A DNA stretch of 64,000 nucleotides. Source: Chloroflexota bacterium. Lineage in GTDB: Bacteria; Chloroflexota; Dehalococcoidia; Lucifugimonadales; JACPCL1. The position numbers were made by a program, and so were the translations under genes. The notes beneath the pieces were generated by a model. That model was given only the letters and a program-made list of their open reading frames with translations, had not been told where the DNA came from and ran no database searches. Positions 34,624 to 45,375 of the stretch are shown here, piece after piece; the first letter of the stretch is position 1; each line of letters begins with the position of its first letter. Location of the stretch: assembly GCA_016179765.1 (NCBI GenBank), contig JACPCL010000031.1, forward strand, positions 64,341 to 128,340. Reading direction: 5' to 3'.

Positions 34624-35159
34624 TCACTTCCGAGGAAGCTGGTAGCGAATGGTAAGATTGGCGCCGTTCCCTTTCGGGGGTTGGGCAAGAATGGAATCGC
34701 CAGAGCGCATTTCCTTCCGCATGACGGCGCAACAGATTGGCATCCGGGGTGTAGGTTTTGGGTACCCGCCGACGGCGCGGTGCAGCTTTCCGGAGTTTAT
34801 GTCAATGTAGGAGAGACCGCTTTCGGCAGCCTCCTGTAGCTTGAGGCGAAGGGCTTCCGAGAACTCCCCAGAGTTTGGCGCATGTTGTTCCTGCACTTCT
34901 CGCTCCTTCCTTGCTTCCAGCCACCGCCTCAAAGACTCCTGGCTTTCCATGGACGGATACCCAGCCAGCAAGTGCTCCACACTGATGTCCTCGTCCAGGT
35001 CTTCCCAGTGGATGCCTTCCCCCTTCACAATGAGTTCCCAGTTGGCTCGCTCTGCGGGGGTAGCATGTACCAGGCGGGGAAACCAGACCAGGGCACAGAG
35101 AGAGTCCTTCCGTCGCTCAGTTCTACAGTGAGTCTTTCCTCGGATACCTCAACGTTCAA
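34624..35159 (-). pseudogene. DUF2442-domain gene fused to an uncharacterised C-terminal domain; carries a 1-nt frameshift
   Basis: Frame 1 from TTG 35159 reads LNVEVSEERLTVELSDGRTLSVPW. The family continuation WFPRLVHATPAERANWELIVKGEGIHWEDLDEDISVEHLLAG is in another frame. The break is at GTGCCCTGG (about 35089-35097). Length is 536 nt = 3n+2. Confidence 0.7.
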
Positions 35160-35172
35160 AGCGTTGGGTACC

Positions 35173-35420
35173 TCAATGCGAACGAGAGAAGTAGCCATTC
35201 CATGCCTCCAGCAACGCTACGTGACGCTCTTCAATGATTCTTTGGATGCGACGAAGCTCAACATCGGTAAACCCACTGGTGTTGGCAAGCTTCACCGGGT
35301 TCAGCCAGAACTTCGCACCCCTATCCTCTCTTCTCTTCTCACGTGCATATGCGCGGGTTCAACACCATCTCCAGCATAGAAGTAGAAGCGATAGCCTTGA
35401 ACCCTCAGCACGGTGGGCAT
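35173..35420 (-). pseudogene. DUF4160-family gene with a 1-nt frameshift
   Basis: MPTVLRVQGYRFYFYAGDGVEPAHMHVRREER.. then shifts frame to ..GAKFWLNPVKLANTSGFTDVELRRIQRIIEERHVALLEAWNGYFSRSH*. The break lies in the purine run AGAAGAGAAGAGAGGATAGGGG (about 35319-35340). Length is 248 nt = 3n+2. Confidence 0.7.
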
Positions 35421-35429
35421 GGGCAAACC

Positions 35430-36538
35430 CTACAGCCTTGGCTTGCTGGCGGTGCTGCCGCCCCGGCTCTTCGCCGCCTTGGGGCGGAACTGCTTGAGGC
35501 CCGCCAGGAACCCATCGTAATTGCGGCGGGTCTCCTCCAGGTGGTCGCCGCCGAACTTCTCCAGGAAGCAGCCCACCAGCACCGTGGCCAGCACCGCCTC
35601 GCCGATGACGCAGGCGGGCGGCACCTGGCAGATGTCGCTGCGCTCGTAGTGGGCCTCCACCACCTCGCCGGTGTCCAGGTCTACCGAGGGCAGGGGCTTG
35701 CTAAGGGTGGAAATGGGCTTGAGGGCCATGCGGGCCACGACCGGCTCGCCGTTGCTCATGCCGCCCTCAATGCCGCCGGCGCGGTTGGTGACGTGGTGGA
35801 AGGGGCGCGCGTCGCCGCTCCACGGCTCAATAATGTCGTGGACGTTGGAACCGAGCTTCTCGGTGTTCTCAAAGCCGGCGCCAATCTCCACGCCCTTGAC
35901 CGCCTGGATGCTCATCATGCCCTGGGCGATGAGGCCGTCCAGCTTGCGGTCCCACTGGGTATGGCTGCCCAGGCCCACGGGGACGCCGTAGGCGACGACC
36001 TCAAAGACGCCGCCGGCGGTGTCGCCGTTGTCGCGGCACCAGTCAACGTGGGCCATCATGGCCTTGGCGGCCTCAGGGTCGGCGCAGCGCACCGGCGACG
36101 CCTCCACGGCGTCCCAGTCAATCTTCTCTGGCATCCTGGCCTTGATAGCAGCGATGGTGAGGACGTGGGAGTGAATGGCGATGCCGAACTCCTCCAGGAA
36201 GCGGCGGGCCACCGCGCCGGCGGCGACGCGGGCCGCCGTCTCCCGGGCGCTGGCCCGCTCCAGGATGGGGCGGACGTCGTGCTGGCTGTACTTGAAGACG
36301 CCGGGGAAGTCGGCGTGGCCAGGGCGCAGGCGTGTGACGCGGCGCACCTTGGCGTCGTCGTCCACCGGCGCCACGGACATGGCTTCGGTCCAGTTGACAA
36401 AGTCCTTGTTCTCCACCCACATGGCGATGGGGCTGCCCATGGTGAGGCCGTGGCGGACGCCGGAGAGGCGGGTATGCCCTCCACGATGACGACGCCGCCC
36501 TTGCCGTGGGACTCTCCTGCCGTGAAGTAGCGGAACAT
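35430..36538 (-). pseudogene. aroC: Chorismate synthase disrupted by an internal out-of-frame deletion
   Basis: ATG 36538 gives MFRYFTAGESHGKGGVVIVEGIPA. The next family-matching stretch, LSGVRHGLTMGSPIAMWVENKD...RPGHADF...ERASARETAARV..., is in a different frame. About 35 codons are missing, including the RRQxGxGRGxRM motif. Confidence 0.75.
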
Positions 36539-36539
36539 G

Positions 36540-37335
36540 GGGGCCTCCTTACCTCTCCCCCCTTCCCCCTCCCCTGAAGAGGGAGGGGGTGAGAAGGATG
36601 GGTTGCCAGGGCATATCGTATACGCGGGGCAGTGCAAAGACAAGGCTGACCGCACCCGTGTGGTAAACGAGTCGTAGGGGCGATGCGGTGCATCGCCCAT
36701 GGGCGTGGGTGGACACGCAGGCCATGCTCCTGCGGGCGCGAAGGCGTTGTAGGGGCGCAGCATGCTGCGCCCCTACGGGCGAGGGCACCCGTTCCGTAGG
36801 GGCAGACCCGGGTGTCTGCCCTGCCCTCGGCCCTGGGCGGACACGTCGGTCCGCCCCTATGGTGGGCACCCTCCCCGTAGGGGCAGACCCGGGTGTCTGC
36901 CCTGTCCTTGGCCCTGGGCGGACACGTCGGTCCGCCCCTATGGTGGGCACCCGTTCCGTAGGGGCAGACCCGGGTGTCTGCCCTGCCTCGGCCCTGGGCG
37001 GACACGCTGGTCCGCCCCTACGGGGAGGGAGGCGCTGCCGTTTTGTCATTCCTACGAAAATGGCTTCCTCCCCCCTTGCGGGGGAGGATTGAGGTAGGGG
37101 GTAGGCCCTCGTTCACCCCCATTCCTTCGCTTCCGCTCAGAGCCTGCCCTGAGCCTGCCGAAGGGACAGGCTCAGGCCTTCCCCCGTCAATGGGGAAGGA
37201 ACTGACGATTGACCCTTTTCATCCCTCCTGTGCTGGCCCCCACCAGGAGAGTTTCCTCGCTTCCCGCCACGCTGCGCTCGCGGCTAAAGGCTCACCGGAA
37301 TGACAGAGGGCTGTCCTACGGGCGCACGGGTATGT
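36540..37335. repeat. ~0.8-kb gap made almost entirely of palindromic repeat modules
   Basis: CCCCCTTCCCCCTCCCCTGAAGAGGGAGGGGG, M7 GTAGGGGCGCAGCATGCTGCGCCCCTAC (36748-36776), the tandem array, and M8 at about 37140. Confidence 0.85.
36748..37030. repeat. Tandem array, about 3 copies of an 81-bp unit
   Basis: GTAGGGGCAGACCCGGGTGTCTGCCC...GGGCGGACACGTCGGTCCGCCCCTATGG starts at 36796, 36877 and 36958 (period 81). Each unit contains two hairpins. Confidence 0.9.
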
Positions 37336-37342
37336 ATGAATG

Positions 37343-37372
37343 AGAAGAGGCCCGCCTGGGCGGGCCTCTTCT
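37343..37372 (-). terminator. Hairpin downstream of the selenoprotein gene
   Basis: AGAAGAGGCCCGCC-TG-GGCGGGCCTCTTCT, with no U tract. Confidence 0.5.
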
Positions 37373-37394
37373 GGGGGTTGTCTGTTCTGAGGGC

Positions 37395-37688
37395 CTAGTG
37401 GGCTCCCACGGGCACGGGCGCCCGGTCCAGCCGCTCTATCAGGAGAGGCCTGACCTTGCGCAGAGCGCGCAAGCTGGTGAGGAAGTCGCCGTCGCCGGCC
37501 TCCTTGCGGGAGTACACCAGCGTACCGTCCAGATAGACCTCAAACCGCCCATCGCTCACGGGGGTGAAGACGATGGAGGTCTCCTTGACGCGGCCGTCGC
37601 AAATCTCCGCTGCGAAACTCGCAGCCTTCCAGAAATAGCCTCAGGATACGCAGTACTTGATCTCCAGCCGGACCTTTCCTTCTGCCAT
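37395..37688 (-). CDS. selW: SelW/Rdx-family selenoprotein (CxxU) with in-frame UGA at 37641-37643
   Basis: MAEGKVRLEIKYCVS[U]GYFWKAASFAAEICDGRVKETSIVFTPVSDGRFEVYLDGTLVYSRKEAGDGDFLTSLRALRKV.... Compare the SelW motifs VYCGAUGY and FEV..G.L.HSKK.GDG. Absent from the ORF track because of the TGA. Confidence 0.8.
37609..37625 (-). promoter_or_regulatory. Candidate bacterial SECIS hairpin
   Basis: GCUGCGA-GUU-UCGCAGC begins 15 nt after the UGA. Confidence 0.55.
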
Positions 37689-37904
37689 GGTGCTCCCTCC
37701 TCTTGTGGTGCTGATGCCATTTGGCGTCTTGGGAATAGATTGTGCGCCTGGACGCCTGGGATGTCAACTCTGGAAGGGATGAGGAGGTTTGGGGCAAAAT
37801 CTCTTATGCGGGGCAAATATTCTTGAAAAAAGGGCCCACAGCGGCGAACAAAGCGGTAAAATAGAGCAAGCACCGTATCCTTTTTTTCGCCGAGAGGTAG
37901 GGAC

Positions 37905-38444
37905 ATGATCAAAGCCATCGCCTTTGACTGGAGCAACACCCTCATGCGGGAGATCCCGCTCATCCGGCGGCCCTCTGCCCGCTCGCCTCAGATGGAGGTG
38001 GTGCCGGGCGTCACCAGCGCCTTGAAGGAGCTGCACCAGCAATTCCTCTGCTGCATCGCCTCCAACGCCAGGGGGCCTGAGGTCAGCGCCCTGAACATGG
38101 TCCTGGAACGGGCGGGGCTGGCGCAGTACATCGGCCACGTCTTTACCGCCCAGGAACTGGGCGCCCCCAAGCCGGAGGCCAGGTTCTTTCATAGCCTGCT
38201 CTACAAGCTCATGCTCAAGCCCCACGAGTGCGTCATGATAGGGGACGATTATAATGTGGACATCGCCGGCGCCAAGGCCGTGGGCATGAAAACCATCTGG
38301 TTCATCGAGCGCACCAACCAGGAGGCGCGGGACGCCGACGTGGTCATCGGCGCCATGAGCGAGCTGGCGACGGCCGTTGGCAAGCTGGCTGCCCAGGGGG
38401 AGCGGGAGGCCACGAGGCCACGGGTGGCGACACCCTCTCCATAG
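37905..38444 (+). CDS. HAD-superfamily hydrolase (subfamily IA-like)
   Basis: MIKAIAFDWSNTLM...IASNA...MIGDDYNVDIAGAKAVGMKTIWF. Confidence 0.8.
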   Translation: MIKAIAFDWSNTLMREIPLIRRPSARSPQMEVVPGVTSALKELHQQFLCCIASNARGPEVSALNMVLERAGLAQYIGHVFTAQELGAPKPEARFFHSLLYKLMLKPHECVMIGDDYNVDIAGAKAVGMKTIWFIERTNQEARDADVVIGAMSELATAVGKLAAQGEREATRPRVATPSP

Positions 38445-38590
38445 CAGGCTGCGGAAGAACACCCCCAAACCCGCCTTTGGCGGGTTCAAGGTATCCGCCT
38501 ACGGCGGATTAATTGGTATCTGGGGGACACCCCCAGACCCCCACCATCCGCCTGAGGCGGACGCCCCACTGGACTCCCCTTTTTTTTGCA
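38444..38590. repeat. Near-complete composite repeat element (MITE-like)
   Basis: GCAGGCTGCGGAAGAAC-ACCCCCAAACC-CGCCTTTGGCGG-TTCAAGGTATCCGCCTACGGCGGAT...TATCTGGGGGACACCCCCAGACCCCC...CATCCGCCTGAGGCGGACGCCCC..GGACTCCCCTTTTTTTT. Confidence 0.85.
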
Positions 38591-42479: not shown

Positions 42480-42850
42480 GATAATGGAGAGGTGGTTGAC
42501 TGTCATTCTGAGCAAGTCCTTCTTTGGAAGGACGCAGCGAAGAATCTAAGGCGCACGTAGGATAGAGCATCTGCTTCCCAAGCAGGGAGTTCAGGAAGGC
42601 AAACGCCTTAGATGCTTCGTCCTTCGGCTGAAGGACTCAGCATGACAAGGGGGACGACCTAACCCCCTTCCCGCACGGGAATCCCGACTTGTCAGGACTC
42701 TCCTTTTGGGAGAGGGGGACCAAGAGGGAGAAGTCAAGAGGTTAACAGAGGGGATACAGCCTGCCCCTTCAGCAGGCTCAGGGCTGGCTCTGAGCAGAAG
42801 ACCGCCGAAAGCCTGCCCTTGAGCGAAGCGAAGGGCCCTGAACACCGTGA
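42480..42850. repeat. Mosaic palindromic repeat block
   Basis: M5-like GTCATTCTGAGCAAG...GCAGCGAAGAATCT, an M6-like module, M4-like GGGAGAGGGGGACCAAGAGGGAGAAGTCAAG, and M8. Confidence 0.8.
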
Positions 42851-42921
42851 AGGAGCAGCCGGAGGGCCCGCCCTTCAGCCGAAGGGCGGGCCTCAATCAC
42901 CCATCATCGGGGAGCACGACC

Positions 42922-45375
42922 ATGACCACTGCCAGGATCGCACCAGCCCTTACACCTAATGCTATCACAATTCTGAAGACGCGCTACCTCATCGGCGATG
43001 AGACGCCTCAGGAGATGTTCACCCGCGTCGCACGGGCCGTGGCCTTAGCAGAGGCCCCCGCCGAACGGGAACGGTGGGAGGCCACCTTCTACAACCTGAT
43101 GGCCAGCACCCGCTTTCTGCCCAACTCGCCCACGCTGTTCAACGCCGGCACGGGCCAGGGCACCCTCTCCGCCTGCTTCGTCCTGCCCGTGGAAGACACC
43201 ATGGAGAGCATCATGCAGGCGGCCACGGCCAGCGCCATGATCCAGAAGTACGGCGGCGGCCTGGGGTACACCTTTGGCAAGCTGCGCCCTCGCGGCAGCA
43301 AGATCGCCACCACCCAGGGCAAGGCCTGCGGCCCCATCGCCGTCCTCAAGATGCTCTCCTCCCTTTCCGATATGATCACCCAGGGGGGCAAGCGCCACGG
43401 GGCCAACATGGGCATCCTCCCCGTGGAGCACCCGGAGGTCCTGGACTTCATCCACATGAAGGACGACGACCAGACGGCCCAGAACTTCAACATCTCCGTT
43501 GCGGTGACCGACGCCTTCATGGAGTCGGTGGAGAAGGACCAGCCGTGGCAGCTCATCAACCCCCACAACGGCAAGGCGGCCAGGACCGTGCCCGCACGCC
43601 AGATATGGACGGAGATCATCCAGTCCGCCTGGAAGACGGGCGACCCCGGCCTCTTCTTCATTGACGAGGCCAACCGCACCAATCCGACGCCCCACGTGGG
43701 CCGCCTGGAGAGCACCAACCCCTGCGGCGAGGTGCCCCTGCTGGCTAACGAGGCCTGCAACCTGGGGTCCATTGACCTGGGCAAGTTCGTCGTGGACGAG
43801 ACGGGCATACGAGCATACGGGCATACGGACATAGGGGCCGTAGCGGCGGACCCACGTGTCCGCCCAACCTTTGACTTCAAGGCCCTGGAGGAGGTGTCGG
43901 CCATCGCCGCCCGCTTCCTGGACAACGTGGTCACCATCAACACCTTCCCCACGCAAGAGGTGACCAACGCCGTGGCCCTGACCCGCAAGACGGGCCTGGG
44001 GGTCATGGGCTGGCACGATGCCCTGGTGCGCCTGGGCATCCCCTACGAGTCGGAGGAGGCCCTGGAGCTGGCCCACCGCGTCATGGGCACCATCACCGAT
44101 ACGGCCCGCGAGGTGTCCCTGGACTTGGCCCAGGCGCGCGGCCCCTACCCCGCCTGGCAGCCCCAGTCCCCTGGCGAGCGGCCCATCCGCAACGCCACGC
44201 GCACCTGCATCGCCCCAACAGGAACCATCAGCGCCATCGCCGGGGCCTCCAGCGGCATTGAGCCCATCTTCGCCCTGGCCTTCGTCAAGAACGTCCTGGA
44301 CGGCAAGCAGCTCCGGGAGGTCAACGCCGACTTTGACCGCATCGCCCGGGAGCGCGGCTTCTACTCCGAGGAGCTGATGGATGCCGTGGCCAGGACCGGC
44401 TCATGCCAGGCGCTCCCGCAAGTCCCCGAGGACGTGAAGCGCCTGTTCAAGGTGGCCAACGAGGTCAGCGCCGACTATCACGTCCGTATGCAGGCGGTGT
44501 TCCAGGAGCACACGGACCTGGCGGTAAGCAAGACCATCAACATGGCCCACTCCGCCACGGTGGAGGACGTGGAGAAGGCCTACTGGCTGGCCTACCACAA
44601 CCGGTGCAAGGGCATCACCATCTACCGCGACGGCTCCAAGTCCATGCAGGTGCTGGAGGTGCAGAAGGAGACTGCGCGGACTACCGTAGGGGCGCAAGGC
44701 CTTGCTCCCCTACAATCGCCCGCAGCCACCACGCTTTCCCCCTCTCCTTTGATGGGAGAGGGCCGGGGTGAGGGTGCGCCCGTTCCCCCCGCCAAGCGGC
44801 CACGCCCCATGGCCATGCAGGGCGTGACGGAGCGTGTGCGCACCGGCCACGGCAACACCTACATCACCATCAACTTTGACGAGCAGGGCCGCCCCTTTGA
44901 GGTGTTCACCACCCTGGGCAAGGCCGGCTCCTGCGACGCCGCCAACCTGGAGGCCATCAGCCGCCTGGTCTCCCTGGCCCTGCGCTCCGGCATCCCCGCC
45001 GAGGAGGTGATTGACCAGCTCCAGGGCATCACCTGCCACCCGGTGTGGGACCAGGGCGAGCTAGTGCGCTCCGCCCCCGATGCCGTGGCCCTGGCCATCA
45101 AGCGCCACGTCAGGTACGTGCAGGAGGGCACGCGTCCCCTGGATGTGACCCAGGTCAAGGCGTCGGAGACGGCGTACAGCGCGCAGCTCAGCCTGCCGAT
45201 GCAGAAGGACATACGGACAAACGGGCAAACGGGCAACGGAGAGGCCCACGGCCCAAGCGCGCCGCACGCTGCCACCGCTATCGGCTTCGCCTGTCCGGAG
45301 TGCGGCGGCCCCGTCGCCTTCCAGGAGGGGTGCGTCCGCTGCCAGGCCTGCGCCTGGAACCAGTGCGGGGGGTAG
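42922..45375 (+). CDS. nrdJ: Class II (adenosylcobalamin-dependent) ribonucleotide reductase
   Basis: MTTARIAPALTPNAITILKTRYL...LSACFV...NPCGEVPL...TGTIS...KGITIYRDGS...C-terminal CPECGG..CxxC. GGGGAG lies before ATG 42922. Confidence 0.9.
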   Translation: MTTARIAPALTPNAITILKTRYLIGDETPQEMFTRVARAVALAEAPAERERWEATFYNLMASTRFLPNSPTLFNAGTGQGTLSACFVLPVEDTMESIMQAATASAMIQKYGGGLGYTFGKLRPRGSKIATTQGKACGPIAVLKMLSSLSDMITQGGKRHGANMGILPVEHPEVLDFIHMKDDDQTAQNFNISVAVTDAFMESVEKDQPWQLINPHNGKAARTVPARQIWTEIIQSAWKTGDPGLFFIDEANRTNPTPHVGRLESTNPCGEVPLLANEACNLGSIDLGKFVVDETGIRAYGHTDIGAVAADPRVRPTFDFKALEEVSAIAARFLDNVVTINTFPTQEVTNAVALTRKTGLGVMGWHDALVRLGIPYESEEALELAHRVMGTITDTAREVSLDLAQARGPYPAWQPQSPGERPIRNATRTCIAPTGTISAIAGASSGIEPIFALAFVKNVLDGKQLREVNADFDRIARERGFYSEELMDAVARTGSCQALPQVPEDVKRLFKVANEVSADYHVRMQAVFQEHTDLAVSKTINMAHSATVEDVEKAYWLAYHNRCKGITIYRDGSKSMQVLEVQKETARTTVGAQGLAPLQSPAATTLSPSPLMGEGRGEGAPVPPAKRPRPMAMQGVTERVRTGHGNTYITINFDEQGRPFEVFTTLGKAGSCDAANLEAISRLVSLALRSGIPAEEVIDQLQGITCHPVWDQGELVRSAPDAVALAIKRHVRYVQEGTRPLDVTQVKASETAYSAQLSLPMQKDIRTNGQTGNGEAHGPSAPHAATAIGFACPECGGPVAFQEGCVRCQACAWNQCGG

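Follow-up and report, generated by a model that had tools for sequence, protein, structure and literature searches.

The question raised by this locus is whether the organism has lost its chorismate synthase or whether only its published genome has. The aroC gene at positions 35430-36538 (minus strand) of the window, a stretch of 64,000 nucleotides that was analyzed as a whole, is deposited as a broken, out-of-frame gene. The window lies on contig C37, which belongs to a draft genome with a total length of 2.29 Mb in 53 contigs; this draft is 94.8% complete and contains 0 N. Its protein matches assign it to the Dehalococcoidia within the Chloroflexota. The first-pass annotation had stated that aroC carries an internal deletion, and had left both a recent event and an assembly artefact open. 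The statement is correct for the deposited sequence but probably not for the organism, and the evidence gathered here favored the artefact, not the recent event.

The aroC Gene as Deposited

The start codon of aroC (ATG at 36538, minus strand) lies 5 nt downstream of a Shine–Dalgarno-like AAGGAGG (36544..36550, minus strand), which is conserved in G002, the closest relative. The frame of this codon opens with MFRYFTAGESHGKGGVVIVEGIPA. The 5' fragment of the gene (36468..36538, minus strand) comprises the ATG and the first 23 codons plus 2 nt (MFRYFTAGESHGKGGVVIVEGIP-A), with the GESHG motif included; it shared 83% identity with residues 1-24 of the AroC from G009 and aligned with the N-termini of the relatives' enzymes. 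Past codon 24, the frame continues into unrelated sequence (SPASATASP...). The 3' part (35430..36467, minus strand) resumes at 36467 as LSGVRHGLTMGSPIAMWVEN… in a frame that differs from that of the start codon, and runs unbroken through 345 codons (LSGVRHG… to …SKPRL*) to the stop codon at 35430-35432. Translation of both frames thus bore out the earlier claim that the first 24 codons are joined to AroC sequence in a different frame, and the 345 open codons agreed with the claim that the rest of the gene is intact.

The junction (36467..36468, minus strand) reads …CATACCCGC|CTCTCCGGCGT…, and 106 nt that were present in all relatives examined are absent here. Its best position was 36468|36467, with an ambiguity of 1-2 nt and a microhomology of 1-2 nt only. 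In the DNA alignment of aroC with four relatives, a single gap of exactly 106 nt was found, equal to 35 codons plus 1 nt. The internal out-of-frame loss was therefore confirmed both by reading the frames and by the alignment; the existence and approximate size of the missing piece stood as first described, whereas the figure of about 105 nt had to be corrected to 106 nt. Slippage between repeats was considered and rejected as the origin of the junction: a 9-nt direct repeat (CCGGCGTCC) does occur close to either end of the block in G002, yet the junction in the window lies 4 nt off and CTCT is kept.

The direct reading of this structure would be that aroC was inactivated by a genuine deletion of 106 nt, which would be very recent and either fixed or frequent in the sampled population. 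The lesion stands in the deposited sequence, and the 1-2 nt of microhomology fits illegitimate recombination. Like young deletion pseudogenes, aroC has a single out-of-frame internal deletion with minimal microhomology and is otherwise intact. As set out below, we nevertheless regard such a deletion as unlikely, and an assembly fault as the preferred explanation.

The Missing Block in Relatives and in AroC Family Models

The full AroC reading frames were extracted from eleven related genomes, and in all of them …GIPA and LSGVRHG… were separated by 35 residues, which in G001, a genome of the same genus, read GVPISEEYIEKHMRRRQQGYGRGPRQQLEVDRAEI. The block was present in the same-genus relatives, which were 84-95% identical, and in every other relative examined. 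G002, with 94% DNA identity, was collinear with the window on both sides of the gap and contained the block. In addition, a search with one 32-mer from a flank returned seven metagenome contigs and five genome contigs, all of other species, and the block was found in every contig that covered the site. The lost block contains the RRRQxGYGRG loop, which is also present in 1Q1L, the best-matching solved chorismate synthase; the first-pass statement that about 35 residues including the RRQxGxGRGxRM segment were missing was thus upheld. Arginines of this block are reported to bind the substrate phosphate in the work on 1QXO.

The long frame of aroC (P0002) scored 311.3 bits against TIGR00033 (cut-off 212.2), covering profile positions 59-349 of 351, 335.4 bits against NF003793 (cut-off 321), and 311 bits against PF01264, covering positions 54-326. 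It did not cover the full length of an AroC model in a single frame; the match began at position 58-59 of the equivalog models or 54 of PF01264, and the intact relative P0003 spanned positions 1-350. Compared with known chorismate synthases (TIGR00033, NF003793 and PF01264; structures 1Q1L from Aquifex aeolicus and 1QXO from Streptococcus pneumoniae), the locus resembled a true AroC in the 311-335 bits obtained for the long frame, in the 88% identity of this frame to a same-genus AroC, and in the separate 24-codon start with GESHG. It differed in that profile positions of about 25-58 are not encoded in the deposited gene and positions 1-24 lie in another frame. The GESHG motif is therefore encoded but out of frame with the body of the enzyme, and the DNA contains no RRRQ…GRG block.

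These results bear on the idea that aroC is functional as deposited, either as a truncated AroC or through frameshifting that joins the two frames. An ATG at 36440 does begin a 336-aa reading frame within the gene. However, either product would be without the 35-residue RRRQxGYGRG block, the truncated form would also be without GESHG, and AroC profile positions 1-58 were present in every relative and in 1Q1L. Programmed frameshifting and an alternative start were accordingly rejected, since the 35 conserved residues are not encoded and recoding cannot restore them. Judged by what it encodes, the deposited gene cannot give a full AroC or, as predicted, an active enzyme, whatever start or frame is chosen, and a functional gene in this form is hardly conceivable.

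Other Missing Blocks in the Same Draft

The draft was surveyed for similar gaps with all reading frames of at least 100 aa from G009, the closest complete relative (2.0 Mb). These were compared with the draft by tblastn, and collinear pairs of HSPs that switched frame were collected where the HSPs abutted and at least 40 nt of conserved coding sequence was missing. Five frame-switch sites were obtained, aroC (106 nt) among them, and a scan of the draft for in-frame gaps added one further site, trpD. Counting aroC, clean gaps of this kind thus affect at least six conserved genes of the draft. The other five blocks measured 62-191 nt and were located in conserved single-copy genes, the identities of the gap-bearing genes being confirmed by Pfam. 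About 154 nt was missing from an acsA-type gene (C20:~46958) and about 100 nt from radA (C20:~51812), both with a clean frame switch. A formyltransferase gene (Formyl_trans_N) had lost 62 nt at C40:8121/8122, and about 191 nt was missing from gatB (C23:~6393), whose frame was broken. In trpD (C25:~1059), the gap was in frame: 114 nt were missing, which encode 38 conserved residues with the FHPAM…GPLTNPA block among them; this second gene of the aromatic pathway was probably hit by the same artefact as aroC.

The gatB gene is present in a single copy in the draft and was cut at profile position 223-239 of 277. Furthermore, no GlnRS was found in the draft genome (best score 62.7 bits against a cut-off of 425.8), so that Gln-tRNA must come via GatCAB; the organism should not survive a genuine loss that puts gatB out of frame. 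The gap in gatB is therefore almost certainly an assembly gap of the same kind. The recurrence expected of an artefact was thus found at six sites, one of which is the single-copy gatB of a genome without GlnRS. A real deletion in aroC, by contrast, would require that at least six blocks were cleanly lost at the same time, one of them from essential gatB. Young deletion pseudogenes are unlike this pattern as well, as sets of similar clean cuts in essential or housekeeping genes with zero point differences are not expected of them.

It might be argued that the 62-191-nt losses are all real, and that a sub-lineage of this groundwater Dehalococcoidia very recently shed parts of aroC, trpD, radA and acsA, living as an auxotrophic 'cheater' on cross-feeding by the community with an undetected bypass of gatB. 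We consider this very unlikely. The reciprocal control gave two candidates in G009, both weaker, which makes the survey by itself suggestive and not conclusive. A comparable candidate at about position 1111905 of G009 lacked about 151 nt with a frame switch in a homologue of an 850-aa protein, with flanks of low identity.

Independent Assemblies of the Same Strain

Independent assemblies of the same strain were sought in Logan by looking up neighboring genes. For the site on C40, the look-up with a PHP-domain gene led to a Logan contig (L142) from run SRR12113432. Its identity to the draft was 100%, both along 1806 nt to one side of C40:8121/8122 and along 353 nt to the other. Exactly at this point the contig carried 62 extra nt, and its 274-aa formyltransferase gene was intact. 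The C40 junction had zero microhomology and showed the same clean-cut anatomy as aroC. The contig is direct proof that a block present in a same-strain assembly is missing from the draft at C40, and it speaks against a real deletion at its sister site in aroC.

In principle, the difference at C40 could alternatively reflect polymorphism between samples. Extended to aroC, deletion and intact alleles would coexist in the strain and the assembler would have taken the path of the deletion. Metagenome populations are heterogeneous, and L142 shows the intact version at C40 in at least one sample. However, such an account requires that a minority loss-of-function allele was chosen at at least six loci, one of them lethal, and no heterogeneity at the level of SNPs was seen between seven runs and the draft. 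Over 16,236 non-redundant same-strain bases in Logan, from seven SRR121134xx runs, there were 0 mismatches and 0 small indels relative to the draft. The runs containing this strain are SRR12113432, SRR12113422, SRR12113426, SRR12113390, SRR12113401, SRR12113429 and SRR12113418. Large block losses combined with zero SNPs are unlike divergence between populations; coexisting alleles are hence extremely improbable as the explanation, and the 0 SNPs over 16.2 kb between assemblies count equally against a real deletion in aroC.

The aroC site itself was approached from both sides. With the intact neighbor DegV, the same strain was detected in the Logan assemblies of six SRR121134xx runs, and the DegV-bearing contigs were 100% identical to the window from 32079 onward. 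Three independent same-strain contigs (L127-L129) terminated at 35550..35564, in the 3' end of aroC. The Logan contig with the HAD gene covered only 37277-38472 of the window. Among the same-strain contigs reached through neighboring genes, those at aroC, radA, gatB and acsA ended before the gaps, and the C40 site alone was spanned. The 25-mer of the aroC junction had no match in the JGI metagenome contigs, which may not cover the locus. Protein searches with the long frame, with the 131 aa that follow the junction and with the 89-aa N-terminal read-through returned no same-strain AroC, the best hits being 88%, 84% and 70% identical, respectively. Likewise, the 336-, 160- and 235-aa reading frames predicted from the deleted aroC had no exact record in the sources searched, which may not cover the locus either. 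Separately, a contig from Logan run SRR4343428 (L154), which belongs to a different accession series, encoded a 141-aa protein identical to that of the strain, so the lineage may occur in another dataset.

Pathway Context and Selection

The first-pass annotation had proposed searching the genome for a second aroC, and a search of the draft genome found none, which is a point in favor of a real deletion. If the deletion were real, the organism would be auxotrophic for chorismate and aromatic amino acids and would depend on cross-feeding within the aquifer community. Many Dehalococcoidia rely on metabolites from the community.

The state of the remaining pathway argues otherwise. The genes aroA, aroK-aroB (fused or adjacent) and aroE, two chorismate-binding enzymes of the TrpE/PabB type and PDT were present and uninterrupted. 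The last of these, a prephenate dehydratase (pheA-type) and thus a consumer of the chorismate pathway, had already been recognized in the window; its PDT match begins at 63591 (63591..64000, plus strand), and the intact gene continues past the window end (C37:127931-128467). Moreover, the dN/dS of the surviving aroC codons against the relatives was 0.10-0.24, compared with 0.11-0.17 among the relatives themselves. The remainder of aroC is under normal purifying selection, with no decay. Neither the pathway genes searched nor the dN/dS of aroC showed the pathway decay or relaxed selection expected of a deletion pseudogene, the suspect trpD block aside. With a normal dN/dS and an otherwise intact pathway, the lesion in aroC is either extremely recent or not real. 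For a real deletion, it is unfavorable that selection on the remaining codons was not relaxed and that the other pathway genes were undamaged, except for the similarly suspect trpD.

Neighboring Features

Directly downstream of aroC, a DUF4160/DUF2442 pair (window 34624-35420) is split by 1-nt frameshifts. These frameshifts recurred base for base in Logan, where the contigs L127-L129 from three runs covered the whole pair and L131 covered the split in DUF2442. As they were reproduced in independent assemblies, the frameshifts are real and their origin differs from that of the large gaps. Real gene damage does therefore occur in this strain next to aroC, which is a point in favor of a real deletion. 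Homopolymer errors of long reads were discarded as a general explanation, since assemblies of short reads contain the neighboring 1-nt frameshifts too and otherwise match the draft exactly.

Three tandem 81-nt units occupy window 36783-37020, in the space that separates aroC from the next gene. Each unit consists of two palindromic GTAGGGGC(A/G)GACC…-type elements, and the motif of this element occurs 7 times in the window, where chance alone would give 0.48. One copy, at window 43840-43852, lies in frame inside the ribonucleotide reductase reading frame (42847-45375), where it gives an 18-residue insert (IRAYGHTDIGAVAADPRV) that is absent from G009. Several other proteins of the draft also had short 'SPSPL-GEG-GEG'-like inserts relative to G009.

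Proposed Origin of the Gap

Assemblies of these samples evidently tend to break within aroC, given that the Logan contigs L127-L129 end at 35550-35564 and that a contig of G002 also ends inside the gene. At the right edge of the aroC gap begins a 46-nt block that is shared without change by G002 and a more distant contig (L015). Misassemblies have been reported to concentrate in conserved sequence common to co-occurring strains (PMC9661791). The congeners G001 and G002 are MAGs from groundwater whose names (NC_groundwater_…_Ag_…) point to a Northern California groundwater study, and SRR12113421, from the same run series, is cited as groundwater source data. From the run numbers and the congener names, the draft would come from a study that used MEGAHIT to assemble each sample and the IDBA-UD scaffolder to join the resulting contigs (PMC7906910, the presumed source).

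On this basis, the following origin may be proposed. The strain would co-occur with close congeners whose conserved genes, aroC among them, are identical to its own over long distances, and short-read assembly graphs would break at these shared stretches. Two contigs ending inside aroC could then have been joined on read-pair evidence with their distance underestimated, so that the contig ends were concatenated at the cost of the 106 bases between them, which had remained unassembled. Joins of this type would produce clean, repeat-free cuts of random length and phase, preferentially in conserved genes. A contig join would then be the software step responsible for the dropped bases.

Compared with the misassemblies and contig-join errors known from short-read MAGs (metaMIC, PMC9661791), the gaps described here were similar in several respects: they involve conserved sequence shared by co-occurring relatives, they recur in one draft, the gap at a sister site is absent from an independent assembly, and there is no signature of decay. 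They differed from the usual types, which are translocations, relocations, inversions and small indels. The error of the aroC type in this draft is a clean loss of 62-191 nt with no run of N at the join, in a genome with 0 N.

Implications for the Aromatic Pathway and the Draft Genome

By analogy with the sister sites, namely the recurrence at six sites, the gap in gatB and the intact contig at C40, the 106-nt gap in aroC is quite likely an assembly fault of the deposited draft, and the organism itself most likely has an intact, working chorismate synthase. The artefact was also favored by the 0 SNPs in 16.2 kb, the normal dN/dS, the intact pathway and the assembly breaks inside aroC. A broken aroC with aromatic auxotrophy is probably not the right biological reading.

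If the break in aroC were taken as it stands, a metabolic reconstruction would classify the organism as auxotrophic for chorismate and aromatic amino acids, and with the gaps in trpD, gatB, radA and acsA added, the genome would look as if it were decaying. As an assembly fault, the aroC gap would not be a real feature and would have no wider biological significance. The results indicate a systematic error in the draft, in which short blocks were dropped inside conserved genes. This error matters for pathway calls, pseudogene counts and completeness estimates for this genome, and possibly for others from the same pipeline.
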